Origin: a phage
DNA: 38,987 nucleotides
Sequence record: PZ379547.1
Strand: one strand, 5' to 3'
The notes under the pieces were generated by a model that worked only from the letters and a program-made list of their open reading frames with translations, ran no database searches and had not been told where the DNA came from. Positions 3,463 to 38,987 of the stretch are shown here, piece by piece. Each line of letters begins with the position of its first letter. Position 1 is the stretch's first letter. The position numbers were made by a program, and so were the translations under genes.

Positions 3463-3788
3463 TGAACAAGTCATACGGGATTAATCTGGTACACTCTATG
3501 GACGCAGAAATGAACATGTTAAGCCTACTGGCTACCGGGTATCGTCACGGAACGTCAAGTCACACCGCACGTCAACAGCAGGAGCGGGACCGTGTACTAC
3601 AGGCGCGACTCCGGGCAGAGGGCCATAAGTCCGAACTGATGTGTCTGGCGTATGGTGGACGACCAATCACCGACGATGGTAAACTTTTAGTCTCAGGCTG
3701 GAAGGCGATAGACCAACGGTCAACCATCAAGCACACGACCAAAGGTGACTTCAGTCATCTCCACGCTAACCCGCTGATATGCAAGTAA
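3462..3788 (+). CDS. Hypothetical early protein (108 aa)
   Basis: ORF in track; ATG overlaps upstream TAA (TAATG); last gene before the RNA polymerase; not similar to the T7 0.7 kinase. Confidence 0.5.
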   Translation: MNKSYGINLVHSMDAEMNMLSLLATGYRHGTSSHTARQQQERDRVLQARLRAEGHKSELMCLAYGGRPITDDGKLLVSGWKAIDQRSTIKHTTKGDFSHLHANPLICK

Positions 3789-3793
3789 TTCTG

Positions 3794-3816
3794 ACTTAAC
3801 TATCACTATAGGACTC
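3794..3816 (+). promoter_or_regulatory. Phage RNAP promoter directly upstream of the RNA polymerase gene
   Basis: cttaactatcactataggactca matches the promoter consensus; +1 G at 3811, 75 nt before the gene 1 ATG. Confidence 0.7.
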
Positions 3817-7039: not shown

Positions 7040-7113
7040 CAGACCTACAGTTACTGGCCTTGTGGCTGGGAGCACTCGCAGTATTCACTTTAATCCAAAG
7101 CAGAAGAGGTTAA

Positions 7114-7136
7114 CCTAAACTATCACTATAGGATTA
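7114..7136 (+). promoter_or_regulatory. Phage RNAP promoter (T7 phi1.1-like position)
   Basis: cctaaactatcactataggatta; +1 G at 7131. Confidence 0.85.
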
Positions 7137-7141
7137 GACTC

Positions 7142-7168
7142 AAGGTCATGACTCAAAGTCGTGGCCTT
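7142..7168 (+). promoter_or_regulatory. Predicted RNase III processing hairpin (T7 R1.1-like)
   Basis: AAGGUCAUGAC-ucaaa-GUCGUGGCCUU, 11-bp stem with G-U wobbles; preceded by the conserved agactcaagg motif. Confidence 0.6.
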
Positions 7169-7206
7169 CATGATTAACCCTAACTCATTCAATCAGGAGC
7201 TACACC

Positions 7207-8744: not shown

Positions 8745-8765
8745 CGTCTAGGCCACCAGCTAGAC

Positions 8766-8788
8766 CCTAAGCTATCACTATAGGACAA
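8766..8788 (+). promoter_or_regulatory. Phage RNAP promoter, variant (G at -12)
   Basis: cctaagctatcactataggacaa; +1 G at 8783. Confidence 0.65.
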
Positions 8789-9591: not shown

Positions 9592-9746
9592 CTGACGTAG
9601 AGAAGAAATACATCGTGGAGCTTGAGGGTCTCGTTCAGTCCTTCGAGGTTCCGGTGTACGCAAAGTCTCTTGAAGAGGCTACCATGAAGTCCCAAGAGTA
9701 TGAGGACGCTGGGTTTATGGTCGGACGGATTCGTCCTGAGACCTAA
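9588..9746 (+). CDS. gp2: Host RNA polymerase inhibitor Gp2 (52 aa)
   Basis: Below the track cut-off; [14 protein letters not shown]...[10 protein letters not shown] matches recalled T7 Gp2 (SFEVPIYAETLDEA...AGFEVTRVRP); AAGGAG SD. Confidence 0.8.
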
Positions 9747-9764
9747 ACTATCACTGTAGGACAG
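9742..9764 (+). promoter_or_regulatory. Phage RNAP promoter, variant (G at -3), upstream of SSB gene
   Basis: cctaaactatcactgtaggacag; overlaps gene 2 stop. Confidence 0.65.
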
Positions 9765-14112: not shown

Positions 14113-14277
14113 GTGTTTAAGAAACTTAAAGCTCGCTACCATCGGTTCATGTACAAATGGTGGAGTGATGAAGCAACCTGCCTGTCCAACATTCTTGGAG
14201 ACCAAAGGTTCGACTCTAAGGCATGGAAGAGAGCTAACCGGAAGTTTATGTATCACTTCTTGCGTACAGACTTCTAG
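14113..14277 (+). CDS. Hypothetical small protein (54 aa from GTG; T7 gene 4.3-4.7 region)
   Basis: Track ORF 14077..14277; GTG 14113 has GGAGG 9 nt upstream; start uncertain. Confidence 0.35.
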   Translation: MFKKLKARYHRFMYKWWSDEATCLSNILGDQRFDSKAWKRANRKFMYHFLRTDF

Positions 14278-14287
14278 GTCTAGACTC

Positions 14288-14312
14288 AAGGTCATTCACA
14301 TCGAGTGGCCTT
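14288..14312 (+). promoter_or_regulatory. Predicted RNase III processing hairpin (T7 R4.7-like position)
   Basis: AAGGUCAU-ucacaucga-GUGGCCUU with G-U wobbles; preceded by agactcaagg motif. Confidence 0.55.
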
Positions 14313-17945: not shown

Positions 17946-17997
17946 GTCTAACCGATAGTCATATCCTATCAATCCAACAGTCATCCATAGGTGAAAC

Positions 17998-18020
17998 ACT
18001 AAACTATCACTATAGGGACT
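17998..18020 (+). promoter_or_regulatory. Phage RNAP promoter (T7 phi6.5-like position)
   Basis: actaaactatcactatagggact; +1 G at 18015. Confidence 0.85.
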
Positions 18021-19272: not shown

Positions 19273-20841
19273 ATGGCTGAACGTGAAGGGTTCGCTGCTG
19301 AAGGAGCCAAAGCGGTCTATGACCGACTGAAGAACGGTAGACAGCCATATGAGACACGCGCTCAGAACTGTGCTGCTGTCACTATCCCGTCACTGTTTCC
19401 TAAGGAGTCCGACAACTCGTCTACTGAGTACACAACTCCGTGGCAAGCTGTAGGTGCTCGCTGTTTGAACAACTTGGCTGCAAAGCTGATGTTGGCATTA
19501 TTCCCTCAGTCACCGTGGATGCGACTGACAGTCTCCGAATATGAGGCCAAGACCTTGAGTCAGGACTCAGAGGCAGCTGCTCGTGTTGACGAAGGGCTGG
19601 CTATGGTCGAGCGTGTGTTGATGGCCTACATGGAGACCAACAGTTTCCGTGTGCCATTGTTCGAAGCTCTGAAGCAGCTTATCGTCTCCGGTAACTGTCT
19701 GCTCTACATTCCAGAGCCTGAACAGGGAACCTACAGTCCTATGCGAATGTACCGCTTAGTGTCATACGTTGTTCAACGTGATGCGTTCGGTAACATCTTG
19801 CAGATTGTGACTCTCGACAAGGTAGCGTTTAGTGCTCTACCGGAGGACGTGAAGTCTCAACTCAACGCAGATGACTATGAGCCTGACACCGAGCTGGAAG
19901 TGTATACGCACATCTACCGTCAGGACGACGAGTATCTACGCTACGAGGAAGTGGAAGGCATTGAGGTAGCAGGGACCGATGGTTCTTACCCACTGACTGC
20001 CTGTCCATACATCCCGGTACGAATGGTTCGACTGGACGGTGAAGACTACGGTCGTTCTTACTGCGAGGAGTATCTGGGAGACCTTAACTCGCTGGAGACG
20101 ATTACAGAAGCTATCACCAAAATGGCTAAGGTAGCCTCCAAGGTGGTGGGCCTCGTTAACCCGAACGGTATCACGCAACCTCGTCGTCTGAACAAGGCGG
20201 CTACAGGTGAGTTCGTGGCTGGTCGCGTTGAGGACATCAACTTCCTGCAACTGACGAAAGGTCAGGACTTTACGATTGCCAAGTCGGTGGCTGACGCTAT
20301 CGAGCAACGTTTAGGCTGGGCCTTCCTTCTTAATAGTGCTGTTCAGCGTAATGCAGAGCGTGTCACTGCTGAAGAGATTCGTTATGTTGCTGGCGAACTG
20401 GAGGCGACCTTAGGTGGCGTGTACTCAGTACAGTCACAAGAGCTTCAGTTACCTATCGTCCGTGTGCTGATGAACCAACTTCAGTCTGCTGGCATGATTC
20501 CTGACCTTCCGAAAGAAGCAGTAGAGCCTACTGTCTCCACTGGTCTGGAAGCGTTAGGTCGTGGTCAGGACTTGGAGAAGCTGACTCAGGCGGTTAACAT
20601 GATGACTGGTCTTCAGCCGCTATCTCAGGACCCGGACATCAACTTGCCGACCCTTAAGCTACGACTCCTGAACGCTCTGGGTATCGACACCGCTGGCCTA
20701 CTCCTGACGCAAGACGAGAAGATTCAGCGCATGGCTGAGCAGTCGTCTCAACAGGCAGTTGTCCAAGGTGCTGGCGCTGCTGGTGCTAACATGGGCGCTG
20801 CTGTAGGTCAGGGAGCTGGTGAGGACATGGCTCAAGCCTAA
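19273..20841 (+). CDS. gp8: Portal (head-tail connector) protein (T7 gene 8 homolog), 522 aa
   Basis: YETRAQNCA..TIPSLFPK, TPWQAVGAR, RMYRLVSYVVQRDAFGN, RMVRLDGEDYGRSY, TAEEIRYVAGELE match recalled T7 gp8. Confidence 0.95.
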   Translation: MAEREGFAAEGAKAVYDRLKNGRQPYETRAQNCAAVTIPSLFPKESDNSSTEYTTPWQAVGARCLNNLAAKLMLALFPQSPWMRLTVSEYEAKTLSQDSEAAARVDEGLAMVERVLMAYMETNSFRVPLFEALKQLIVSGNCLLYIPEPEQGTYSPMRMYRLVSYVVQRDAFGNILQIVTLDKVAFSALPEDVKSQLNADDYEPDTELEVYTHIYRQDDEYLRYEEVEGIEVAGTDGSYPLTACPYIPVRMVRLDGEDYGRSYCEEYLGDLNSLETITEAITKMAKVASKVVGLVNPNGITQPRRLNKAATGEFVAGRVEDINFLQLTKGQDFTIAKSVADAIEQRLGWAFLLNSAVQRNAERVTAEEIRYVAGELEATLGGVYSVQSQELQLPIVRVLMNQLQSAGMIPDLPKEAVEPTVSTGLEALGRGQDLEKLTQAVNMMTGLQPLSQDPDINLPTLKLRLLNALGIDTAGLLLTQDEKIQRMAEQSSQQAVVQGAGAAGANMGAAVGQGAGEDMAQA

Positions 20842-20859
20842 ACTATCACTATAGGAACA
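20837..20859 (+). promoter_or_regulatory. Phage RNAP promoter (T7 phi9-like position)
   Basis: cctaaactatcactataggaaca; +1 G at 20854; overlaps portal stop. Confidence 0.8.
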
Positions 20860-20938: not shown

Positions 20939-21823
20939 ATGTCTCAATCAGTTTATGCCGAGTTCGGCGTTAGCTCTAATGCAATCACTGGTTCCGTTGA
21001 GGACCTGAACGAACACCAGAAGTCTATGCTTGAACAGGACGTATCGGTTCGTGATGGCGACGATGCTATTACCTTCAAGCAACTGGAAGCTGAAACCGAA
21101 GAGGCTACCGAAGAAGACGATAACGTCGACGAGACTGAAGGTGAAGAAGACCACGAGTCCGATGACGAAGAGTCTGAGACCGATGGTGAGCAGCCTGAGT
21201 TCATCGAACTGGGTGATGCACCAAAAGAGCTGACCGAAAGTGTCACCGCTCTGGATGAAAACGAAGCTGCATTCGACGACATGGTGTCTTCTGCTGTAGA
21301 AGCTGGCAAGGTCACTGCTGATGAAATTACCGCTATCAAGGCTGAATACGCCAAGGACGGTAAGCTGTCTGACGCATCCTACGCTAAGTTGCAGGAAGCA
21401 GGTTACACCAAGCGTTTCGTAGATTCGTTTGTCCGTGGTCAGGAAGCTCTTGCTGAACAGTATGCTGCTGGTGTGGTTCGCTACGCTGGTGGTGCTGAAC
21501 AGTTTAATCGCATCCTGTCACACCTTGAGTCCAACGACCCGTCAACTCGTGAAGCACTTGAAGCTGCTATCGTTCGTAAGGACATTGCGACTACCAAAGC
21601 TCTGCTGAATCTGGCTGGCAAGACACTTGGCAAAGCTGTTGGCGTTAAACCTCAGCGTACAATCACCACTCAGGCTAAACCTGTGGTAGCACCTAAGGCT
21701 CCTCAGACCGAAGCATTCAGCTCTAAGGCTGACATGATTAAGGCTATGAGTGACCCGCGATACCTGCGTGACGCTAAGTACACGATGGAAGTTCGCGCTA
21801 AGGTAGCTGCCTCAAGCCTGTAG
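20939..21823 (+). CDS. gp9: Capsid assembly (scaffolding) protein (T7 gene 9 homolog), 294 aa
   Basis: Highly acidic Glu/Asp-rich protein between portal and major capsid; start moved from GTG 20903 to ATG 20939 (AGGAG upstream). Confidence 0.8.
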   Translation: MSQSVYAEFGVSSNAITGSVEDLNEHQKSMLEQDVSVRDGDDAITFKQLEAETEEATEEDDNVDETEGEEDHESDDEESETDGEQPEFIELGDAPKELTESVTALDENEAAFDDMVSSAVEAGKVTADEITAIKAEYAKDGKLSDASYAKLQEAGYTKRFVDSFVRGQEALAEQYAAGVVRYAGGAEQFNRILSHLESNDPSTREALEAAIVRKDIATTKALLNLAGKTLGKAVGVKPQRTITTQAKPVVAPKAPQTEAFSSKADMIKAMSDPRYLRDAKYTMEVRAKVAASSL

Positions 21824-21824
21824 G

Positions 21825-21847
21825 ACTAAACTATCACTATAGGGAGA
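21825..21847 (+). promoter_or_regulatory. Phage RNAP promoter upstream of capsid gene (T7 phi10-like), with 5' leader hairpin
   Basis: actaaactatcactatagggaga; +1 G at 21842; leader GGGAGACC ... GGUUUCCC can pair, like the T7 phi10 leader. Confidence 0.9.
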
Positions 21848-26487: not shown

Positions 26488-26537
26488 AAGGGCCTATAGA
26501 TTTACCTTAACTATCACTATAGGGACTATAGGCCCTT
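26488..26537 (+). repeat. Perfect 12-bp inverted repeat (aagggcctatag / ctataggccctt) bracketing the gene 13 promoter
   Basis: Arms at 26488-26499 and 26526-26537, read directly. Confidence 0.8.
26505..26527 (+). promoter_or_regulatory. Phage RNAP promoter (T7 phi13-like position)
   Basis: ccttaactatcactatagggact; +1 G at 26522. Confidence 0.85.
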
Positions 26538-27610: not shown

Positions 27611-29893
27611 ATGGCTAGTAATATTGAATCAGCTCTGGCTAATCGGACTATGGGTCGCGGCAGAGCGCCGGGTAAAACTATCGCCGTCAACTATCAAGCA
27701 GCCAACGTTCAGGCTCCGACTGGGGACTCCGGTCTGGCTCGTGCGTTAACCAACTTCGTTGAGTCTGGGACTGGATTGTACAAGCAGTTCAAGGACGAGG
27801 AGAAGACCAGAGCTGACGAGCGGTCTAACGAGATTATCCGTAAACTGACACCTCAGCAAAGACGTGAGGCTATCCAGAACGGCACATTGCTGTATCAGGA
27901 TGACCCTTACGCTATGGAAGCACTTCGAGTCAAGACTGGTCGTAATGCTGCCTTTGCTGTAGACGACGAGATTAACGTTAAGATTCAGAACGGTGAGTTC
28001 CGTACACGTCAGGACATGGAAGAGTATCGCCACCAGCGACTTCAGGACGCCGCTAAGTCCTATGCTGAAGAGGCGGGTATTAACCCTACAGACGAGTTCT
28101 TCCAGCGTGGGTTCAACGATAACATCACAGACCGCAACATCGCTATCTATGGGTCTTTCAATAAGTATTTCAGCAAGCAGTCTGAAGAGACAGCAATGTT
28201 GAACACCCGTATTGAGATGAACTCATTCCTGAACGATGGCGACCTGATGCGTTCACCTGAGTCTGGCAAGACCTTCATGGCCTACCTTCGGGATGGACTA
28301 ACGACTGCTGCTATCCCCTCGGACCAGCGAGCGCGGGAGGTCATTGCCCAGACGGTCCGTGACGCAATCCAGAAGTCAGGCGGCTCAAACTTCCTACAGC
28401 AAGTACGAGGCGAGCGAATCACCCTTAACGGCGTGGATGCTACAGTCGAAGAGATTGTAGGACCTGATGTCTTCAACGCTGCTATTGTTGAGGCACAAGG
28501 AACTGAGTACAAGCTGGTGGCTAAGTATCAGGAAGACTTATCGTTAGGCGTTCAGTCTGCGATTCTTCAGGACGACCCAACCATCGGTCTGGCCCAGATT
28601 CAGAAACTCAAGGAGCAGAACAACCTGCTTCAGCCGGGTGAAGAACTCACGCCTCAGCGTCAGATGCTTATTAATGCCGAAGCCAGCTTACTGGAAGCGG
28701 TCAAGCGTAAGTCTGCTGAACAGGCGAAGGAGAACACTAAGTTAATCCAGACCCAGAACAAGCAGCTAGTCATAGACCAAGTGTATCAGCGACGTCTGGC
28801 TGGAGACAACGTGTCCACCAACTATGAGGACCTTCCGGTCTCTGAATCCACAGGAGAGTTCAAGCGTTCAGACATGAACAACTATGCGTCTGCTAAGCTA
28901 CAGCAGATTGACCAGATGGACATCCCTGAGGCTGCTAAGGACGCACAGAAGGTTGCATTATTAAGAGCTGACACTAACAACGGTCCGTTCCGTAATGCCT
29001 TCCAAACGCTTACTCAGGACGCTGCTGGTGAGTGGCAAGCTGCCGTCATCCGTGGACAGTACGACCCAGACAAGATGCAACGCTTCGAGTCTCTTCGTCG
29101 TGCCTACACTCAGGACCCTTCAAGTTTCGCTGCTCTGTATCCTGACCAAGCTCAGTTGTTCTCTACGTTCGACCAGATGGACAAGATGGGTCTGGACCCT
29201 CAGACGATGATTGAAGCTGATAAGCAAGCTGCAAGTCAAAGCCGTGAGATGCGCATGGAGTCAGACAAGGCGTGGCAGGAGTTGAAGAATGACTCTCGGA
29301 ATAAGGACCTTTCGCGTCTTCCTACGTCTCTGGACGCAAGTGCTCGTAAGGTCTGGGACTCATGGTACTATCGTACAGGTAACGCTGACGCTGCAACGCA
29401 GCAGACTCAACGCTGGCTGAATGAGAACACCGTAACGTTCCAGTCTGAAGGTTCTGACGGTAAGTCCCTCGGCATGGTGTCCAAGCACCAGCTTATGGTC
29501 GGGGATAACCCAGAGTCGTGGCAGGTTGGTCGAGACATTATCGACACCGCTCGTAAGCAGCTCATTAAGGCCAACCCTTGGGTAGTGAACTCTCAGTTGT
29601 CCGTTGTTGAACAGAACGGCTCTATCTTCCTCCAAGACGCTACAGGGACTATTCGTATTCGGTACGATAAAGAACTTGTAGGTAAACTCTACCGCGAACA
29701 ACAGCAGAAGGCACAAGATGCCGCATACGCTCAGGCAGAACGTGACGCTAACAAGCGAGCGCGTATAGTCGGTACTAAAGCTGCTGGTGACAAACGTCGA
29801 GCTGACCGAGAGGCCAACATCGAGAAGCGCGGTGGGATGTATAATGACGTCTCACTGGAGGGTATCGCAAACGTACTAATTGGTAAGGAGTAA
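27611..29893 (+). CDS. gp15: Internal virion (core) protein C (T7 gene 15 homolog), 760 aa
   Basis: ADERSNEIIRKLTPQQRREAIQNGTLLYQDDPYAMEALRVKTGRNAA, TGEFKRSDMNNYA, ALYPDQAQLF, IRIRYDKEL match recalled T7 gp15. Confidence 0.93.
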   Translation: MASNIESALANRTMGRGRAPGKTIAVNYQAANVQAPTGDSGLARALTNFVESGTGLYKQFKDEEKTRADERSNEIIRKLTPQQRREAIQNGTLLYQDDPYAMEALRVKTGRNAAFAVDDEINVKIQNGEFRTRQDMEEYRHQRLQDAAKSYAEEAGINPTDEFFQRGFNDNITDRNIAIYGSFNKYFSKQSEETAMLNTRIEMNSFLNDGDLMRSPESGKTFMAYLRDGLTTAAIPSDQRAREVIAQTVRDAIQKSGGSNFLQQVRGERITLNGVDATVEEIVGPDVFNAAIVEAQGTEYKLVAKYQEDLSLGVQSAILQDDPTIGLAQIQKLKEQNNLLQPGEELTPQRQMLINAEASLLEAVKRKSAEQAKENTKLIQTQNKQLVIDQVYQRRLAGDNVSTNYEDLPVSESTGEFKRSDMNNYASAKLQQIDQMDIPEAAKDAQKVALLRADTNNGPFRNAFQTLTQDAAGEWQAAVIRGQYDPDKMQRFESLRRAYTQDPSSFAALYPDQAQLFSTFDQMDKMGLDPQTMIEADKQAASQSREMRMESDKAWQELKNDSRNKDLSRLPTSLDASARKVWDSWYYRTGNADAATQQTQRWLNENTVTFQSEGSDGKSLGMVSKHQLMVGDNPESWQVGRDIIDTARKQLIKANPWVVNSQLSVVEQNGSIFLQDATGTIRIRYDKELVGKLYREQQQKAQDAAYAQAERDANKRARIVGTKAAGDKRRADREANIEKRGGMYNDVSLEGIANVLIGKE

Positions 29894-29897
29894 CATA

Positions 29898-32800
29898 ATG
29901 GCGACTCGTGGTATTCGCAATAACAATCCGGGTAACATCCGGGTAAGTAAGGACCAATGGGAAGGAATGACTGGAGATGATGGCGCATTCGTCACCTTCG
30001 ATAGTCCAGAGTCTGGCGTCCGAGCTTTAGGTAAAAACCTGCTGTCCTACGGTCGCCAAGGCTATGACTCCATCGAGAAGATTATCAACCGATGGGCACC
30101 TCCTAACGAGAACGACACTAAGGCTTATATCGACTCAGTGGTGGCTGCAACTGGTATTCCAGCTACCCAGAGTCTCGACCTATCGAACCCGGACACCCTG
30201 TCTGCTCTGGCGCAAGCTATCAGCTTCCATGAGACAGGCTCCCGGTACGACCCTGAAGTCTATCAGAAGGGAGTCGCACGAGCACTCAATGGCATTAGCC
30301 CAAAGACTCCACCAGTAAGCGCTAACGTATTTGACGCACTCACGGAAGGACTCAAGGCTAAACCTAAAGTAGCTCTTGGCGAGAACCTTCCGAACGCTGC
30401 TGGTCTGAACATTGAGGGTCAAGCATCTGAAGCTCCCAACGAATCGTTCGGTGAAATGTTCTATAAGGCTACCGGCGATACCATGCAGGAACGAGAGGAC
30501 CGCTCTACGTGGTTCGGCTTCGGGGTGGCTACAAAAGCTGAAGTGAAGAACTCTATGATCGGCGTGGCTATCCGCGCTGGTCAGACAGAGGACTCACTTG
30601 ATGTAATTGGCGATGTGTTCAACCCGACCCGTTGGAACAACCATAAGTGGACTCGTGAGGAGCTGGACCAGATTCGTAACGCTGGGGTCCTGCCTCAGTA
30701 TTACGGGGTCATTACTGGTGGCTCCCCTCAGAACCTGACCGAGCTTATTAACTTGGCGCTTGAGAACCAGAAGTTGGACCAAGAGAAGGCCAAGGCTGGG
30801 ACTGGTGCTCAGGTAGCTGCTGGTGTGATTGGCGCTGGTGTAGACCCTCTGACATACGTTCCTATCGCTGGACAGGTTGGTAAAGGCGCTAAGCTGGTCA
30901 ATAAGATGTTCACCGTGGCTGCTCAATCTGGAGCACTGGCTGGTGTGTCAGAGATGGCCCGTACCTCAGTGGCTGGTGGTGATGCTCATGTGGCTGAAGC
31001 TATCCTTGGTGGTGCTCTCTTCGGTGGTGGTATGACTGCTATCGCTGATGGGTTAGGCAGAGCCTTAGGTCGCAACACTAATGAGTTTGCTGGCCCAGCT
31101 ACACGTCTGGAAGCTCGTGAGACCGCTCGTAACGTTGATGGTCAGGACCTGTCTCGTCTCCCTATTCAGGAAGGTGAGCAGACCTTTAGTCATCAAGGAG
31201 TTAAGTTCGCTGACGTTCCGAATGAGCCGGGTAGTGTACGACTTGAAGATGGTTCAATCCTGATTGGTGAGAACCCTCTGAACCCTAAGACACGTAAGGT
31301 CTTTGACGAAGTGATTGAGCCTGAACGTGCCGCTGCTGGTGTGAACCTTGGTGGGCTAACTGAGATTGGCCTGAAGCTGCTTCGGTCCGAGAACCCTGAG
31401 ATTCGTGGAGTCGCTTCCGACTTAGTGCGTTCACCGACTGGTATGCAGTCAGGGGCCTCAGGTAAAATCGGGACCACTGCGTCAGACGTATTCGAGAGAC
31501 TTCGTGCTGTGGACCATCGGTTCTACAATGACATCGACGATGCGGTTACTGAGGCACTAAAGGACCCGTACTTCCAGACAGCATTCTGGCGAGACTCTGG
31601 CGCATTCCGTCAAGACATCTATCAGCGCGTGTCTATGGCTATCGAAGATGGTAGCGGAAACCTGAAGGCTGAATTGACTCCGGGAGAACTGAAAGTCTAT
31701 GACCTGCTGAAGAACCAGTTTGACGCCAAGCGTGAGATGATGGAGAACCCGGCGATGTTTGGTCGCCCAGACGCTCAGTCTATCTTTCCGGGTAGCCGCT
31801 TCAAGGGAACATACGTCCCGCATGTGTATAGCAACCAGATGAAGGAGCTGTACATCAAGGAGCTTGGGAGTCCAGAGGCACTACAGGAGGCCATCAAGAA
31901 GTCATGGTTGACCAGCTATGCGTCTCGACCTGAAGTCAAGAAACGTGTGGACGAGGCACTCTTAGAGGCTGACCCTACGTTGACTCCAGAAGGACTTGCG
32001 GCTGCGGTCGATAAGTACGCCAACGATAAGGCTTATGGTATCTCTCACACCGAGCAGTTCGAGCGTTCATCCGTAATGGAAGAGAACATCAATGGTCTGG
32101 TGGGTCTGGAGAACAACAGCTTCCTTGAGGCTCGTAACCTGTTCGATAGCGACATGTCAATCGTCCTACCTAACGGTCAGACCTTCAGTGTCAACAACCT
32201 GCGTGAGTGGGACATGGACAAGATTGTCCCGGCCTACAACCGTCGAGTTAATGGCGATATTGCTATCATGGCTGGTACAGGCAAGACCACGAAGGACATG
32301 AAGGACTTGGTTGAGACCCTGATGAACAAGGCTGGGGATGACGGTAAGTTGAAAGGTGAAGTATCTACCTTACGTGACACTTTGAAGATTCTAACTGGTC
32401 GTGCTCGACGTGATGGTGCTGATGATGCGGCCTTCGCTACCGTGATGCGCACAATGACAGACCTATCGTTCTTCGCTAAGAATGCCTACATGGGTGTTCA
32501 GAACTTAACGGAGATTGGTGGTATGCTGGCTCGTGGTAACGTTCGTGCAATGCTTCATGGAGTCCCAATTTTCCGTGACCTAGCCTTCCGTAACAAGAAG
32601 GTTGGGGCCTCAGAGATTAAGGACCTGCACAATGTTATCTTCGGTAAGGAACTGGATGACTCAATCCGTCCGTCTAAACAGGATGTCATTGACCGTCTGA
32701 GATCTTACAGTGACCTCGGTCGTGGTACAGCTACAGCTCTGGGGACTGCCAAGTATTACACTGGCGAACTTGCAGTACGCTATCCGTTCACTAAAGTCCT

Positions 32801-33785
32801 CAACGGTACGACCAACTACCTGTTAGATGCTGGACGTCAGGGCTTCCTGTCTGACATCGTGGAGCATAGCCTGACTGGTAGTAAGCGTAAGTTCGATGAC
32901 CGCTGGCTGAAGACCGCTGGTATCTCTGACGAGCAGTGGAAGGGCATTAAGTCCCTAATCCGTGAGTCAGTGACTCGTGGTCCAGACGGGAAGTATACCA
33001 TCAAGGATAAGAAGGCGTTCAGTCAGGACCCAAGGGCTATGGACCTGTGGCGTATGGGTGACACCATCGCTGACGAGACATTGCTTCGTCCACACAAGCT
33101 GAGCAACATGGACGCCAAGGCTTATGGTCCTCTGGCTAAGACTGTCCTTCAGTTTAAGAACTTCGTCATCAAGTCCATCAATGGGCGTACCATGCGAACC
33201 TTCTATAACGCCACGAAGAACAACCGAGCGATGGATGCTGCTCTGTCCACCGTGATGTCTATGGGTCTTGCTGGTATCTACTACATGGCTCAGGCACACA
33301 TAAAGGCTTACGCTATGCAGGACGGTCGTGACCGAGAGTATCTGAAGCAAGCCCTTAACCCAACAATGATTGGCTATGCGGCGCTGTCCCGTAGCTCCCA
33401 CTTAGGTGGTCCTCTTGGGGTCGCCCACATTCTGGGTGGAATCGCTGGGTATGAGGACACTAAGATGCTCCGCTCGTCAATCCTTCCGCGCTCACCTACC
33501 GAGAAGACGGAGAAGCCAATCGCCTTTGGTGCTGCTTCCAGTGGTCCGGTAATGAATGTGGTCGGCAACTTCCTTGAGCAGGTCCCGGCTTTCGGCTATG
33601 CTGCTAACGTTGGTGCTACGGCTTACAACTTGGCGGGATACCTCAAGGCTGATACCCGTGTCAACGAGCGAGACTACATGACCGGGATGTATAACACGTT
33701 CCGTGAACTTGTACCGAATGACCCGATTACCCAGAAGTTGCTGCTTGGAACGTTTGAGGAGCAGGGCATCCACATCAAGGACTAA
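29898..33785 (+). CDS. gp16: Internal virion (core/ejection) protein D (T7 gene 16 homolog), 1295 aa; N-terminal about 130 aa differ from the T7 transglycosylase module
   Basis: From about residue 200 strongly T7 gp16-like (RWNNHKWTREELDQIR, VITGGSPQNLTELINLA, RLEARETARN, RSPTGMQSGASGK, NPAMFGRP, GTYVPHVY, EARNLFDSD, NGTTNYLLDA, DPRAMDLWR); start moved to ATG 29898 (AAGGAG 7 nt upstream). Confidence 0.93.
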   Translation: MATRGIRNNNPGNIRVSKDQWEGMTGDDGAFVTFDSPESGVRALGKNLLSYGRQGYDSIEKIINRWAPPNENDTKAYIDSVVAATGIPATQSLDLSNPDTLSALAQAISFHETGSRYDPEVYQKGVARALNGISPKTPPVSANVFDALTEGLKAKPKVALGENLPNAAGLNIEGQASEAPNESFGEMFYKATGDTMQEREDRSTWFGFGVATKAEVKNSMIGVAIRAGQTEDSLDVIGDVFNPTRWNNHKWTREELDQIRNAGVLPQYYGVITGGSPQNLTELINLALENQKLDQEKAKAGTGAQVAAGVIGAGVDPLTYVPIAGQVGKGAKLVNKMFTVAAQSGALAGVSEMARTSVAGGDAHVAEAILGGALFGGGMTAIADGLGRALGRNTNEFAGPATRLEARETARNVDGQDLSRLPIQEGEQTFSHQGVKFADVPNEPGSVRLEDGSILIGENPLNPKTRKVFDEVIEPERAAAGVNLGGLTEIGLKLLRSENPEIRGVASDLVRSPTGMQSGASGKIGTTASDVFERLRAVDHRFYNDIDDAVTEALKDPYFQTAFWRDSGAFRQDIYQRVSMAIEDGSGNLKAELTPGELKVYDLLKNQFDAKREMMENPAMFGRPDAQSIFPGSRFKGTYVPHVYSNQMKELYIKELGSPEALQEAIKKSWLTSYASRPEVKKRVDEALLEADPTLTPEGLAAAVDKYANDKAYGISHTEQFERSSVMEENINGLVGLENNSFLEARNLFDSDMSIVLPNGQTFSVNNLREWDMDKIVPAYNRRVNGDIAIMAGTGKTTKDMKDLVETLMNKAGDDGKLKGEVSTLRDTLKILTGRARRDGADDAAFATVMRTMTDLSFFAKNAYMGVQNLTEIGGMLARGNVRAMLHGVPIFRDLAFRNKKVGASEIKDLHNVIFGKELDDSIRPSKQDVIDRLRSYSDLGRGTATALGTAKYYTGELAVRYPFTKVLNGTTNYLLDAGRQGFLSDIVEHSLTGSKRKFDDRWLKTAGISDEQWKGIKSLIRESVTRGPDGKYTIKDKKAFSQDPRAMDLWRMGDTIADETLLRPHKLSNMDAKAYGPLAKTVLQFKNFVIKSINGRTMRTFYNATKNNRAMDAALSTVMSMGLAGIYYMAQAHIKAYAMQDGRDREYLKQALNPTMIGYAALSRSSHLGGPLGVAHILGGIAGYEDTKMLRSSILPRSPTEKTEKPIAFGAASSGPVMNVVGNFLEQVPAFGYAANVGATAYNLAGYLKADTRVNERDYMTGMYNTFRELVPNDPITQKLLLGTFEEQGIHIKD

Positions 33786-33803
33786 ACTATCACTACAGGA
33801 AAC
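33781..33803 (+). promoter_or_regulatory. Phage RNAP promoter, variant (C at -2), upstream of tail fibre gene (T7 phi17-like)
   Basis: actaaactatcactacaggaaac; overlaps gp16 stop. Confidence 0.6.
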
Positions 33804-33849
33804 TGGAGGCGCTACCATAGGTCTCCGTTTAAATCACAAAGGAGGCATA

Positions 33850-36030
33850 ATGTCCACGATTACACAATTCCCTTCAGGAAACACTCAGTACAGGATAGAG
33901 TTCGACTACCTAGCCAGAACGTTTGTTGTTGTTACGCTGGTGAATAGCTCTAACCCTACCCTGAACCGTGTACTGGAAGTTGGTCGAGATTACCGATTCC
34001 TTAATCCAACGATGATTGAGATGTTGGCTGACCAATCAGGTTTCGACATCGTTCGTATTCACCGTCAGACTGGAACTGACTTAGTGGTAGACTTCAGGAA
34101 TGGCTCAGTGTTGACAGCTAGTGACCTGACCAATTCAGAGCTTCAGGCTATCCATATTGCAGAAGAAGGTCGAGACCAAACGGTTGACTTAGCGAAGGAA
34201 TATGCCGATGCTGCTGGTAGCTCTGCTGGCAATGCTAAGGATAGCGAGGACGAAGCACGCCGAATCGCTGCGAGTATCAAGGCAGCTGGTAAAATTGGCT
34301 ATATTACCAGCCGATCATTCGAGAAAGGCTTCAACGTTACAAAATGGAACGAGGTCCTGCTATGGGAAGAGGATGGTGATTATTACCGCTGGGATGGTAC
34401 GCTTCCAAAGAACGTTCCGGCTGGTTCAACTCCTGAATCATCTGGTGGTATTGGGCTGGGTGCGTGGGTTAGTGTTGGCGATGCGTCACTTAGAGCAAGC
34501 CTGTCTGATAGCGATGGCACTAAATACATAGGCAGTGGAGAAAGGACATTACTTGAGCACAACAATGATGTTTTGCACTCAAAAGACTTTCCAACACTGC
34601 AGGCAGCTATAGATGCATCTTTGCAAAAAAATGATCTACTGGTGTCTCCTGGCAATTATACTGAAAAAGTTACTATTGGAAACGCGCAGTTAAAAGGTGT
34701 TGGCGGGGCCACGGTACTAAAAACTCCGGCAGACTTTACAAACACTGTTCAGGTTAATTTAGCTACACCTCATTGGCAATTCCGCCATAGTGGTGGTTTT
34801 GCTATAGATGGTTACGGGACAACCGGGGCCGTAGGTATTAGTTTTGACCCGTCAGACCAATATTCCGGACGTCATAATTTTAGTGATGTATACATCCACA
34901 ACATCAACAAGGCCATTCAGAAGCCTTCCGGGAACATCGGCAATACTTGGAGAAATATTGGGATATCTACGTGTGATTGGGGGTATTACGCGATTAGTGG
35001 CTCAGAGATGCATTGCGGGGCCGATACCCTCTACAATATCCACTTCGATGGCATCTCCACCTATGCAGTCTATCTAGACGGCACTGTCGATAATGGCGGG
35101 GTGGGCGCATGGTGGCTTAAAGACTCCATTATTGAGGCTTCCGGAGGTGGCGGGATATACTTAAAAAGTAAATCGGGCGACTGTCCTACATCTCCATGCG
35201 GGGTATCCAATATATGGATGGAAGCGATCGCAACATCACCGGCTGTTCAGGTAGACGGCGTGCCGCAAAAACCGCGAGTTCTCAAGTTGGTAGACACAGC
35301 GATATTCTTTGCTGAGTATTCTTATCTCAACAACATCGAGCTATCCAACTCCAACTTAGTAACTTATGGTTGCCGTTTTGACAACGCTGATGGCAATCAG
35401 GATATTGTCGTGGATGCACAAAGTACCATTGTAGCCCATGACGTGTATTTAAACGGCAGTTCTGGAAAGGACGTTATTGTGGAGTCCGTAGCATCGCAAT
35501 CTGCAACGATAGCTGCCACAAACTTATCTCTGAGGGGCAACTTAACAAGGGGGAGAGTATTTAATACGCCGACAGGGAATAAATTAATGGCTATCACATT
35601 TGACTCAGGTAGCCATAATTTTTCTGGCAGCGCCACCGTTAACGGTTCGACTGTATCTGACGGACTTCACGCCGCTACATGTACCGAATTTTCATTCCCC
35701 GGAGCCGGTTTATATGAAATGGTAGCGACAAGAACAACCATTACATCCGGTAGATGGTACGTGTGGGGAGTTAACTCACGCCTACAATCTGGCTCGGCGG
35801 ATATTAGTATAACGTTAGGTATTACCATTGGTAGTGTTTACACAAAGCCGGGGGAGTGGATTAGCACTTTCGGTGTAGGAAAGGCATCTACCACTGGCAC
35901 TGTAGCGCTATACGTTTCCACAGGAGGAGGTTCGGGAGCTACGGTCAGATTCAGTGACTTTTTCATCGCTGAGTTTACGACGCAAGCTCAGGCTTTAGCT
36001 TTCGCCAATTCAAGGATGTCGTTATCATAA
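33850..36030 (+). CDS. gp17: Tail fibre/tailspike protein (T7 gene 17 homolog at N-terminus; divergent beta-helix-like C-terminal module), 726 aa
   Basis: N-terminus FDYLARTFVVVTL, DYRF, LVVDFRNGSVLTASDL, AIHIAEEGRD matches recalled T7 gp17 adaptor domain; C-terminal part is Gly/Asn/Ser-rich with repetitive short strands and is AT-richer than the rest; start moved to ATG 33850 (GGAGG upstream). Confidence 0.85.
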   Translation: MSTITQFPSGNTQYRIEFDYLARTFVVVTLVNSSNPTLNRVLEVGRDYRFLNPTMIEMLADQSGFDIVRIHRQTGTDLVVDFRNGSVLTASDLTNSELQAIHIAEEGRDQTVDLAKEYADAAGSSAGNAKDSEDEARRIAASIKAAGKIGYITSRSFEKGFNVTKWNEVLLWEEDGDYYRWDGTLPKNVPAGSTPESSGGIGLGAWVSVGDASLRASLSDSDGTKYIGSGERTLLEHNNDVLHSKDFPTLQAAIDASLQKNDLLVSPGNYTEKVTIGNAQLKGVGGATVLKTPADFTNTVQVNLATPHWQFRHSGGFAIDGYGTTGAVGISFDPSDQYSGRHNFSDVYIHNINKAIQKPSGNIGNTWRNIGISTCDWGYYAISGSEMHCGADTLYNIHFDGISTYAVYLDGTVDNGGVGAWWLKDSIIEASGGGGIYLKSKSGDCPTSPCGVSNIWMEAIATSPAVQVDGVPQKPRVLKLVDTAIFFAEYSYLNNIELSNSNLVTYGCRFDNADGNQDIVVDAQSTIVAHDVYLNGSSGKDVIVESVASQSATIAATNLSLRGNLTRGRVFNTPTGNKLMAITFDSGSHNFSGSATVNGSTVSDGLHAATCTEFSFPGAGLYEMVATRTTITSGRWYVWGVNSRLQSGSADISITLGITIGSVYTKPGEWISTFGVGKASTTGTVALYVSTGGGSGATVRFSDFFIAEFTTQAQALAFANSRMSLS

Positions 36031-36174
36031 AAACAACCTCAGCCGAATCGGGTTATTTATCATCAGAACGGTATTGAATCATCGAAGGTTGTGGAGGTAG
36101 AGGCTAACTACACGTTGACCAACGTATGATAACAACTTTGGGTCACGGACGACCCGCTTTAAACTGGAGGTTTT

Positions 36175-36369
36175 ATGATTGAGTTAGACTTCAAGAATGA
36201 GGTCCTCAAAGCCTCGCCTATCGTCGGGACCGCTGCGGCTGATGGTGCCAGTCGGTTCTTCTTTGGGCTAACGCTCAACGAATGGTTCTACGTCGCTGCT
36301 ATCGCGTACACCGTGGTGCAGATTGGCGTCCTAATTTACAAGACGATTAAGAGCGGAGGTAAGACATGA
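36175..36369 (+). CDS. gp17.5: Holin (T7 gene 17.5 homolog), 64 aa
   Basis: LDFKNEVLKASPIVGT...FFGLTLNEWFYVAAIAYTVVQIG matches recalled T7 gp17.5. Confidence 0.9.
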   Translation: MIELDFKNEVLKASPIVGTAAADGASRFFFGLTLNEWFYVAAIAYTVVQIGVLIYKTIKSGGKT

Positions 36370-36629
36370 CGCAGATGGACTTAGAGAAGTTCCTGTTAAT
36401 GCTGGACACAGAACGTGCTAGACTAATGCTGCAAGACCTGCGGGATGACTCTAAGCGTTCGCCCCAGCTCTACAACGCCATTGAGAAGCTACTGGCTCGT
36501 CACAACTTCGTGCTAAGCAAGGTGTCTGTTGACGAGAAGACGCTCGCTGATATGGAGGCCCTGAACGCAGAGTACGATAAGGTGCTCTCCGCTACGGAAG
36601 ATAATGACACTGGATATGGAGTGCAGTAA
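36366..36629 (+). CDS. gp18: Terminase small subunit (T7 gene 18 homolog), 87 aa
   Basis: LMLDTERARLMLQDL, RSPQLYNAIEKLLARHNF resemble recalled T7 gp18; ATGA overlap with holin stop. Confidence 0.85.
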   Translation: MTQMDLEKFLLMLDTERARLMLQDLRDDSKRSPQLYNAIEKLLARHNFVLSKVSVDEKTLADMEALNAEYDKVLSATEDNDTGYGVQ

Positions 36630-36649
36630 ATCTCTTAAGTGTTAGACTC

Positions 36650-36676
36650 AAGGTCATTACTGTATGTAGTGGCCTT
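36650..36676 (+). promoter_or_regulatory. Predicted RNase III processing hairpin (T7 R18.5-like)
   Basis: AAGGUCAUUAC-uguau-GUAGUGGCCUU, 11-bp stem with G-U wobbles; preceded by agactcaagg motif. Confidence 0.6.
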
Positions 36677-36739
36677 TATGGTTAACACTAACTAGTGGAG
36701 GAGACTCTACGTGAAATCTGATAAACCGGGAGGGCAACT

Positions 36740-37189
36740 ATGCTCGAATTTTTAAAGAGAGCGGCTCCGTGGTTACTTGCAGCAGTGATGTTTGCTGGTG
36801 GCTACCACACCGCTAACAATAAGTGGGAGGTTAAGGTCAATGCAGAATACACCTCGAATCTTAAGGCATCGGAAGATACAAGGCTTGCTGTCCAAGCTGA
36901 AGTCAACAAAGTGTCCAAACGGTTTCAGGACGAAATGTCCTCGCTGGAAGGCAGCACTGATAGGATTATTGCTGACCTTCAGTCTGACAATAAGCGGTTG
37001 CGCATCCGAGTCAAACCAACGAGTGGAACCACGCAAAGTGACGGTCGATGCTTCATTGATGGTTACGCCGAACTTGACGAACGAGATGCTAAACGTCTTA
37101 TCGCCATCGGAGTGAAAGGAGACAAGTGGATTAAGGCCCTTCAAGACACTGTGAGAGCCTTACAGCAAGAGAAGGAGGTGACGCATTGA
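36740..37189 (+). CDS. gp18.5: Rz-like i-spanin (T7 gene 18.5 homolog), 149 aa
   Basis: [13 protein letters not shown] (N-terminal TM), [49 protein letters not shown] match recalled T7 gp18.5. Confidence 0.88.
36840..37115 (+). CDS. gp18.7: Rz1-like o-spanin lipoprotein embedded in the +1 frame of gene 18.5 (T7 gene 18.7 homolog), about 91 aa
   Basis: [24 protein letters not shown] (signal plus lipobox) and C-terminal [15 protein letters not shown] resemble recalled T7 gp18.7; ATG 36840 with GGGAGG upstream. Confidence 0.7.
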   Translation: MQNTPRILRHRKIQGLLSKLKSTKCPNGFRTKCPRWKAALIGLLLTFSLTISGCASESNQRVEPRKVTVDASLMVTPNLTNEMLNVLSPSE

Positions 37190-38949
37190 GTAAAGACTTA
37201 GTGGCGCGTCAGGCGCTAATGACTGCACGTATGAAGTCAGACTTCGTGTTCTTCCTGTTCGTCCTGTGGAAAGCTCTGTCGCTCCCAGTCCCTACTCGCT
37301 GTCAGATTGACATGGCGAAGAAACTATCGGCTGGGGACAACAGGCGCTTCATCCTACAAGCGTTCCGTGGTATAGGGAAGTCCTTCATTACGTGTGCCTT
37401 CGTTGTCTGGAAGCTATGGAACAACCCAGACTTGAAGTTCATGATTGTGTCGGCCTCAAAGGAACGAGCCGATGCTAACTCCATCTTCATCAAGCGAATC
37501 ATCGACCTCATGCCTCAGCTTCAGGAACTCAAACCTAAGCAGGGTCAGCGAGATGCGGTTATCAGCTTCGACGTTGGACCGGCTAAGCCAGACCACTCAC
37601 CTTCGGTTAAGTCCGTTGGTATCACTGGTCAGTTGACTGGTAGTCGTGCTGACATCCTGATTGCCGATGACGTGGAGGTTCCGAACAACTCAGCGACTCA
37701 GGCTGCACGAGACCGTCTATCAGAGCTTGTGAAAGAGTTCGACGCTATCCTGAAGCCGGGAGGTACGATCATCTATCTGGGTACTCCTCAGAACGAGATG
37801 ACACTGTATCGTGAGCTGGAAGGTCGTGGGTACACCACTACTATCTGGCCCGCTCGTTATCCACGCGACAGGAAGGACTGGCAGTCTTACGGTGACCGTC
37901 TGGCACCGATGCTTCAGGCAGAGCTTGAAGAGGACCCTGAGTCCTTCTACTGGCGTCCGACTGATGAAGTACGCTTCGATGATACGGACCTGAAGGAGCG
38001 TGAGCTGTCCTACGGTAAAGCTGGCTTCGCTCTACAGTTCATGCTTAACCCGAACCTGAGTGATGCTGAGAAGTATCCTCTTAAGCTCCGTGACCTTATC
38101 GTAGCCGACTTGGACCCAGCGTCCAGCCCAATGGTCTACCAATGGTTGCCAAACCCTCAGAACAAGCGTGAGGACGTTCCTAACGTGGGACTCATGGGTG
38201 ACTCGTACCACACGTATCAGACTGTAGGTTCTGCCTTCAGCTCATACACCCAGAAGATTCTGGTCATTGACCCTAGTGGTCGTGGTAAGGATGAAACTGG
38301 CTATGCGGTACTGTACCAGCTCAACGGCTACATCTTCGCTATGGAAGTTGGTGGTATGCGTGGTGGCTATGAAGACTCTACGCTGGAAGCATTGGCTAAG
38401 ATTGGTCGTAAGTGGAAGGTCAACGAATACGTCATTGAGGGTAACTTCGGCGATGGTATGTACCTTGAGCTATTCAAGCCTGTAGCGGCCCGTATTCATC
38501 CTGCTGCTGTAACTGAAGTGAAGAGTAAGGGTCAGAAGGAACTCCGCATCTGTGACGTTCTGGAGCCTATCATGGGGTCTCACCGACTTATCGTTAACGC
38601 TGCTGCTATCGTCCAAGACTACCAGACAGCCTCTGACAAGGATGGCGTGCGTAACCCTATCTACTCTCTCTTCTATCAGATGACCCGTATCTCTCGTGAA
38701 CGTGGAGCCTTGGCACACGATGACCGACTTGATGCGCTGGCTATCGGTGTACAGTTCTTCGTTGAGTCTATGGCGAAGGATGCCAACAAAGGCGAACGTG
38801 AAGTCACTGAGGAGTGGCTGGAGGAACAGATGGAGAACCCACGGAAAGGCTTCGAGTCCATCCACACTGAGTTCTGGGACAATGGGGTCCGGGTAACTCA
38901 CGATACTGACGACGAGCTTGGACTAGGGTCCTACGTTACGTTCCACTAG
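37186..38949 (+). CDS. gp19: Terminase large subunit (T7 gene 19 homolog), 587 aa, probable TTG start
   Basis: [111 protein letters not shown] match recalled T7 gp19; AAGGAGG 8 nt before TTG 37186. Confidence 0.96.
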
Positions 38950-38987
38950 CTGAATGAATAACTATAGGCGAAAACTGAATTAATAAG
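38861..38987 (+). repeat. Window-end duplication, copy 2 (identical to 1-127)
   Basis: Exact identity with window start, read directly. Confidence 0.95.

Follow-up and report, generated by a model that had tools for sequence, protein, structure and literature searches.

The sequence record PZ379547.1 (38,987 bp, one strand, 5' to 3'; "the window" below means this whole stretch) is identified by megablast as a complete T7-like genome of the genus Kayfunavirus, K1F group. The subject of this analysis is its gene 17, which encodes a tailspike of 726 amino acids (aa). Gene 17 very probably encodes the only receptor-binding tailspike of a Kayfunavirus of the LM33_P1 type, in which a conserved N-terminal block is joined at a neck motif to a portable cassette recognising the O25b O-antigen of E. 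coli. As a modular tailspike it is already known: the same gene was described and deposited in 2016 as that of phage LM33_P1. Its product and LM33_P1 gp17 (YP_009324518.1; Kayfunavirus LM33P1; Dufour et al. 2016, J Antimicrob Chemother 71:3072) are 98% identical (713/726, thirteen substitutions), with 99.0% identity in DNA and 0.016 synonymous substitutions per synonymous site (dS), and they are alike in their 726-aa length, their position between gp16 and the holin gene, and their junctions. The full-length gene is present at 95.5-99% in twelve database records, LM33_P1 and eleven further phages. The product also gives a full-length colinear match to phrog_27367 (PHROG 27367, the LM33_P1 gp17 family), with 1318 bits over aa 1-726 against profile positions 1-736 of 736.

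A reading made from the window's letters and open reading frames (ORFs), here called the sequence-only reading, had proposed that gene 17 is a mosaic, and sharp similarity breakpoints against sister Kayfunaviruses bear this out. In blastn comparisons of positions 33001-37000 with four Kayfunaviruses that carry other spikes, IMEP24, F (K1 endosialidase), PE3-1 and PSK1, identity of 91-96% ends at 34484-34494 and resumes at 36081-36093. It falls to undetectable within about 10 nucleotides (nt) at either end of the cassette, and likeness to the spike of the K1 phage F stops at 34485. The site proposed earlier, 34500-34520, lies within about 25 nt of the true junction. By nucleotide alignment the left breakpoint falls between ...GATGCGTCACTTAGAG (R215, 34492-34494) and TCTGA (about 34503), where likeness to the Kagunavirus siphophage VB_EcoS-Golestan (Golestan below) starts; blastn gives 88.3% nucleotide identity to Golestan over 34526-36032. 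On the right, the comparison with the siphophage puts the breakpoint directly after the stop codon and the comparisons with Kayfunaviruses put it at about 36081, so that a 48-nt lineage-specific spacer follows the gene. RNA folding of the spacer region (36028-36175) gave no significant structure (z = -0.78). In Golestan (L001, 5508-5545) the module is followed directly by a GC-rich hairpin and T-run, AAGGCCCCAAACGGGGCCTTTTCTCT; at the equivalent place after gene 17 the hairpin is weak and non-significant.

The C-terminal module is widespread on other adaptors. An exhaustive search returned 295 cluster representatives (190 at E ≤ 1e-10), and in most of the 295 the match reaches the protein C-terminus behind N-termini of widely varied lengths. 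At least five kinds of N-terminus precede it: the Kayfunavirus block, two from Kagunavirus, the P22 head-binding domain (PF09008), one from another siphophage, and the longer N-termini of the Kuravirus ES17 and of the Gamaleyavirus phages Bp4/PD38. Similarity starts in every case at the motif L-x-x-x-D-G-x-K-x-I-G-S-G, which is kept behind at least five different adaptors; this neck motif is the natural module boundary. The Kagunavirus spikes (Golestan gp30, phiEc3/phiEc4 and 22664BS2) share the module from about aa 219 to the C-terminus at 88-91% amino acid identity, colinear and gapless. Their own N-terminus of about 150 aa is entirely different and suited to a siphophage baseplate, and they have an extra neck motif upstream of the junction. 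The versions on the P22 head-binding domain are proteins of 644 aa with 81% amino acid identity to the module.

Further observations concern individual copies of the module. In one P22-like prophage (L008, 6001-9165) the module is attached to the head-binding N-terminus and lies beside an integrase and chromosomal focA, mlaA and fadL-like genes. No module copies were detected by blastn in distant mode among 5,426 complete E. coli genomes; P22-like prophage copies were found only in other assemblies. The module is itself mosaic. One copy (P0028) keeps 88-95% identity as far as about aa 455 and has 42-50% after aa 495, and the P22-like copy P0017 has about 90% identity, falling to 62-82% past aa 535; the region concerned is aa 455-726 (window positions about 35212-36027). 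As judged from these alignments, the two copies suggest that exchange also takes place at a second point, close to where the β-helix ends. The record MZ417522.1 (24,953 bp), labelled Mycolicibacterium phage J1, also encodes this enterobacterial module at 69% identity and is probably mislabelled or contaminated.

Between gene 17 and Golestan the module has a dS of 0.47 and a nonsynonymous rate (dN) of 0.049. The dN/dS ratio of 0.10 indicates that the function of the module is conserved by purifying selection. Because the nearest copy outside Kayfunavirus is at dS 0.47, no recent donor is known and a recent direct transfer is not indicated. The recent horizontal acquisition put forward by the sequence-only reading therefore stands only in part: the breakpoints show that cassette exchange is real, but its recency finds no support in the distance of the nearest outside copy or in composition. 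"Recent" holds only as ongoing reassortment of spikes among Kayfunaviruses. The case in point is PSK1, the closest backbone over the left 24 kb, which has a different, unrelated spike of 900 aa at the same breakpoints.

The same reading had described the DNA as AT-richer from about 34520. The two A-rich strings that it quoted exist, at 34623 and 34661, and positions 34500-34799 are locally AT-rich (GC 0.427, the 1.8th percentile of 300-nt windows; genome GC 0.501), but there is no significant break at the junction in GC or in GC at third codon positions (GC3). The sliding-window GC and codon-usage comparison that it had suggested gives a GC of 0.485 for the N-terminal part (33850-34499) and 0.464 for the C-terminal part (34500-36030; z = 0.89), with equal GC3 on the two sides (0.442 and 0.437). 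The best GC split anywhere inside the gene reaches a |z| of only 1.08. Ten long genes of the phage have a GC3 of 0.564 ± 0.036; none of their 1500-nt chunks is as GC3-poor as the C-terminal part, and 1% of their 645-nt chunks are as poor as the N-terminal part. Two-breakpoint likelihood segmentation of 29000-38900 finds a low-GC block at 33781-37201 (0.473 vs 0.525) with a log-likelihood ratio of 11.9, compared with 7.3 when the breakpoints are forced to 34500 and 36030 and a block-shuffle maximum of 5.4. The best GC change-point, 33781, falls at the promoter-like copy just upstream of the gene 17 start. Composition was accordingly rejected as a marker of the junction or of recency, as GC, GC3, change-point and segmentation all place the shift at the start of gene 17.

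The compositional deviation thus extends over the whole of gene 17, and its module junction is unmarked by composition. The Golestan copy of the module has a GC of 0.467 and a GC3 of 0.435 between flanks of 0.51-0.52, and GC3 drops further still, to 0.31-0.40, in the C-terminal modules of IMEP24, F and PE3-1, which are unrelated to it. Since the module is low in GC3 in Golestan, the conserved N-terminal part is equally GC3-poor and those unrelated modules are poorer, composition cannot date the acquisition; low GC3 is common to these spike genes in general and accompanies the module in each of its settings. The protein composition was described correctly: the C-terminal part is rich in glycine (11.6%), serine (10.4%), threonine (9.2%) and asparagine (6.2%), compared with 8.4, 6.0, 5.5 and 4.5%, respectively, in the ten long genes.

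The conserved N-terminal block consists of two domains. PF03906 (Phage_T7_tail) matches aa 10-115 with 60.2 bits against a cut-off of 25.2, and the Protein Data Bank (PDB) chains of T7 gp17 (7boz/8dsp) align to aa 6-116 only (E 3e-16). T7 gp17 is 40% identical over aa 6-113. PF18668 matches aa 151-211 (75 bits against a cut-off of 25, E 5e-21), and the same residues match the pre-helix domains of the CBA120 tailspike proteins (TSPs) TSP1, TSP3 and TSP4 (4oj5, 5w6f, 5w6h). The assignment of the first 220 or so residues to the T7 fibre N-terminus, as made from the letters, thus holds for aa 6-116; in the remainder, aa 151-211 are a Tail_spike_N domain. The solved spike PDB 9vvr (843 aa, 18 chains; Kayfunavirus-type) is near-identical over aa 1-224 and then diverges (450 bits, E 1e-133), which identifies aa 1-215, with its two domains, as the genus-conserved block. 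No publication was found in the literature for PDB 9vvr or 9lna. The spike is presumably trimeric and present in six copies per tail, as in T7; the 18 chains in 9vvr would fit six trimers. In the T7-type family such a trimer would dock at the adaptor/nozzle (gp11/gp12) interface.

Gene 17 shares with T7 gp17 and K1F gp17 the PF03906 anchor, a single receptor-binding protein per phage and a distal part that is swapped across families. In this paradigm an anchor of about 140 aa is conserved and the receptor-binding domain that follows it, at the C-terminus, is exchanged (Latka et al. 2019, PMC6872550). T7 gp17 lacks Tail_spike_N (PF18668), whereas the conserved block of gene 17 reaches aa 215, and the distal part is a β-helix, unlike the T7 fibre tip or the β-propeller of the K1F endosialidase. 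No Pfam match to a sialidase β-propeller or to a C-terminal chaperone (Peptidase_S74) was found in the gene 17 product.

The structure of aa 215-726 was modelled with an alignment of 38 relatives (predicted local distance difference test, pLDDT, 91.5; predicted template modelling score, pTM, 0.87). The β-helix foreseen by the sequence-only reading is present in the model, and Foldseek agrees. The predicted layout is a short helical cap, short strands with a period of 24-29 residues (about aa 261-604) and a long-strand sandwich (aa 611-709). In the C-terminal domain, model positions 397-495 form long antiparallel strands and positions 498-507 a helix, and its local Foldseek matches are carbohydrate-binding modules (CBMs): 8xmz, CBM22 4xuo and CBM16 2zey (template modelling score, TM, on target 0.51-0.65). 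Close BFVD models are only the tail fibres of ES17, PD38 and pYD6-A. The Kuravirus protein ES17-TFP contains a module of the same family as gene 17 (64% amino acid identity, TM 0.95), and its host is likewise ST131; it differs in its length of 1021 aa, its long, different N-terminus and the binding of heparan sulfate proteoglycan reported for it. The tailspikes of P22, Sf6, HK620 and CBA120 (TSP1-4) have just 9-14% identity over the helix and no common sequence family with the module, and their catalytic residues are not alignable with it. Only 1 of the 38 relatives matches PF13229 (Beta_helix), and Pfam returned no catalytic family for any of them.

The most conserved core of the module, aa 387-525, has invariant residues D425, E458, D511 and D522 and near-invariant D392, E429, D482, E489 and D514. 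The proposal that D392, D425 and E458 are stacked catalytic acids, with a 33-residue spacing as in the pairs of P22, Sf6 and HK620, was dropped because strand starts assigned by DSSP at model positions 128, 152, 179, 208 and 236 give rungs of 24-29 residues. In the model these three residues drift along the sheet, and the rung period does not support their adjacency. An AlgE-like "FDP" motif at aa 334-336 was also rejected: its conservation in the family falls short of ≥90%, and uronic acid is absent from the O25b repeat.

The hosts of module-bearing phages suggest that the cassette is specific for O25b. The 2016 work of Dufour and colleagues on LM33_P1 reportedly found O25b specificity, with infection blocked by a lipopolysaccharide extract. 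The module is present in the Kayfunaviruses 22664BS1, 101136BS1 and 101118UKE1 and in the Kagunavirus 22664BS2. All four were isolated on O25b-positive strains, two of them from one strain, DSM22664 (PMC8614997). Phages phiEc3 and phiEc4 lyse chiefly O25 strains (PMC8285336), and LM33_P1 is described as targeting ST131 in a passage of PMC7885116 that cites Dufour 2016. The O25B repeat unit is a neutral pentasaccharide with only glucose (Glc), rhamnose (Rha), Rha2Ac and N-acetylglucosamine (GlcNAc) (PMC8260533). Uronic acid is absent from this repeat, which excludes a lyase if O25b is the substrate and makes hydrolysis the likely mechanism.

These features suggest how the spike could work. The block of aa 1-215 would dock the trimer on the tail, and the cassette of aa 216-726 (cap, β-helix and CBM-like sandwich) would recognise the E. 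coli O-antigen O25b. As the fold and the analogy with other O-antigen tailspikes suggest, it would act as an endoglycosidase that cuts the neutral O25b repeat and so brings the tail to the outer membrane. Recombination at ...LRxxL-x-DGxKxIGSG..., either homologous or illegitimate, would carry the cassette between podophages, siphophages and P22-like prophages, and a swap of the cassette would retarget the phage.

Several points weigh against recognition and cleavage of O25b by the cassette. We know of no enzymatic activity for either the gene 17 product or any close relative. No Pfam family, including catalytic and β-helix families (PF13229, PF12708), matches aa 215-726 at E ≤ 0.01-1, and no solved structure matches these residues significantly by sequence or profile, the PDB matches of the protein being to N-terminal adaptors. 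D425, E458, D511 and D522 are only candidates for catalytic residues. The O25b link is a correlation across phages, and reported host ranges of 41-44% of a panel of urinary tract infection strains are broader than a single strain set. Furthermore, on a glycan array the one relative studied biochemically, ES17-TFP, proved to be a heparan sulfate binder, with no sign of depolymerase activity (Green et al. 2021, PMC7885116).

The module has no Pfam model and at most 15% identity to any solved structure. It is conceivable, though doubtful, that this family (PHROG 27367, about 295 representatives) is a new glycoside-hydrolase or carbohydrate-esterase family acting on O25b, which may also bind heparan sulfate. 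Somewhat less likely is a module that serves as a binding-only adhesin for O25b, and possibly for host-tissue glycans such as heparan sulfate, with no cleavage. Against it, the best-conserved block of the family lies in the middle of the helix and is rich in invariant acids, as expected of an active site, and most of the β-helix O-antigen spikes that have been studied, namely the structural neighbours from P22, Sf6, HK620 and CBA120, are enzymes. In favour of an adhesin, the module matches no catalytic Pfam family and its catalytic residues are unassignable, and it was a purified protein with a 64% identical module, ES17-TFP, that bound heparan sulfate with no depolymerase activity detected (PMC7885116).

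It is improbable that the module is an O-antigen-modifying esterase, a Rha2Ac deacetylase, instead of a glycosidase. O25B is about 98% O-acetylated on its 3-linked Rha, and the acetyl group is among its differences from O25A (PMC8260533). The pectin methylesterases 2ntb and 1qjv, which are β-helix esterases, are among the Foldseek matches (E about 1e-4), and a weak BLAST match to a "pectinesterase" domain is on record from Green et al. (PMC7885116). A weak pectinesterase profile match obtained here (8tne, E 0.23) also points this way, but it was rejected as non-significant and confined to a generic cap motif.

A target in the capsular (K) polysaccharide of ST131 strains, in place of the O25b O-antigen, is slightly more improbable still, and infection by LM33_P1 is said to have tracked O25b and to have been blocked by lipopolysaccharide. 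Kayfunavirus spikes are often capsule depolymerases, for example the K1F endosialidase (PMC6872550), and many Klebsiella capsule depolymerases are among the structural neighbours, but the source hosts of the module-bearing phages are all O25/O25b, and a shared capsule type was not reported for them (PMC8614997, PMC8285336). Vertical descent, with the C-terminal part as an ancestral Kayfunavirus gene 17 end that diverged rapidly under host-range selection, is hardly credible: receptor-binding ends evolve quickly, and the module of the Kayfunavirus IMEP24 is distantly related to that of gene 17 (same family, 38.7% amino acid identity) and has the same junction motif, but the sharpness of both breakpoints, with the drop from about 91-97% within about 10 nt, effectively refutes it, and the 88% nucleotide identity to a siphophage spike, the 81% amino acid identity to P22-like prophage spikes and the unrelated spike of PSK1 also stand against it.

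Thus the preferred reading remains that of a conserved anchor and a portable O25b-recognising cassette, whose coordinates are given below with those of the other features.

Features of gene 17 and its surroundings (positions in the window)
Feature	Position	Strand	Remarks
Gene 17, tailspike / tail fibre, 726 aa + stop	33850-36030	+	Inside ORF 33703-36030
T7 gp17-type tail-attachment domain and helical linker, aa 1-150	33850-34299	+	PF03906, T7 gp17 chains
Tail_spike_N domain (TSP1/Gp66 type), aa 151-211	34300-34482	+	PF18668
Left recombination junction ...GDASLR / ASLSDSDGTKYIGSG...	34483-34530	+	Breakpoint about 34495 to 34503
Exchanged cassette: receptor-binding module and 48-nt lineage-specific spacer	34495-36080	+	No similarity to sister Kayfunaviruses
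Right-handed parallel β-helix body, aa 261-604 (predicted)	34630-35661	+	Includes most conserved core, aa 387-525
C-terminal β-sandwich (CBM-like), aa 611-726, with short final helix (predicted)	35680-36027	+	Model, Foldseek
Post-stop spacer	36033-36080	+	Unlike sister Kayfunaviruses and Golestan; right junction about 36081
Promoter-like copy CTAAACTATCACTACAGGAAACT	33782-33804	+	45 nt upstream of gene 17; overlaps gp16 stop codon
Promoter-like family CTAAACTATCACTATAGG	177-202, 3787-3812, 7107-7132, 8759-8784, 9735-9760, 17991-18016, 20830-20855, 21818-21843, 26498-26523, 33782-33812; also 12285-12323		

Gene 17 belongs to the T7-like late region, where it is flanked by gp16 (internal virion protein) and by the holin/terminase genes, a position that is syntenic with annotated LM33_P1, IMEP24, F, PE3-1 and PSK1. 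Its true start is the ATG at 33850, with the ribosome-binding site AAAGGAGG (33839-33846) upstream at a spacing given as eight bases. An alternative-frame ORF of 109 aa (34202-34531, +) lies within the N-terminal part of the gene and ends just past the junction; it shows no sign of function and is probably spurious. The phage RNA polymerase promoter-like repeat CTAAACTATCACTATAGG, whose last base is variable (G/A), is present in about 10 copies in the genome, and the core of the copy at 33782, ACTACAGGAAA, is a variant one. Scans for sigma-70 promoters and terminators gave results at chance level.

Perfect direct terminal repeats of 127 nt (1-127 = 38861-38987) are present, and the 38,987-bp stretch is therefore a complete linear T7-like genome. 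Its left 24 kb is nearer to PSK1 (95.8% identity), whose spike is different, than to LM33_P1 (about 94%), whereas over the right arm (30850-38987) identity to LM33_P1 is 97.5%. Identity to LM33_P1 in the right arm is mostly 99-100%, with patches of 91-93% at 32950-33549 (the end of gp16) and a patch of only 88% at 36550-36849, between the small terminase and Rz genes. The alignment indicates that these may be further small recombination patches. A 64-nt direct repeat with 80% identity occurs at two intergenic sites, 7122-7185 and 36630-36693, with a third, partial copy at 14275-14295. The repeat may have a conserved role in RNA processing or regulation in the phage. An Rfam scan of the entire 38,987-nt genome gave no match.

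Gene 17 is one more case of the textbook T7/K1F-type exchange of receptor-binding domains. The limits of the cassette (34495 / 36030-36080), together with the neck motif, provide practical splice points for host-range engineering in a T7-like chassis. If the module were indeed a new enzyme family that also binds heparan sulfate, the LM33_P1-type spike would serve to place the phage on mucosa as well as to strip O25b. The range of E. coli open to attack is probably set by the module, and most likely comprises the pandemic O25b:H4-ST131 lineage.

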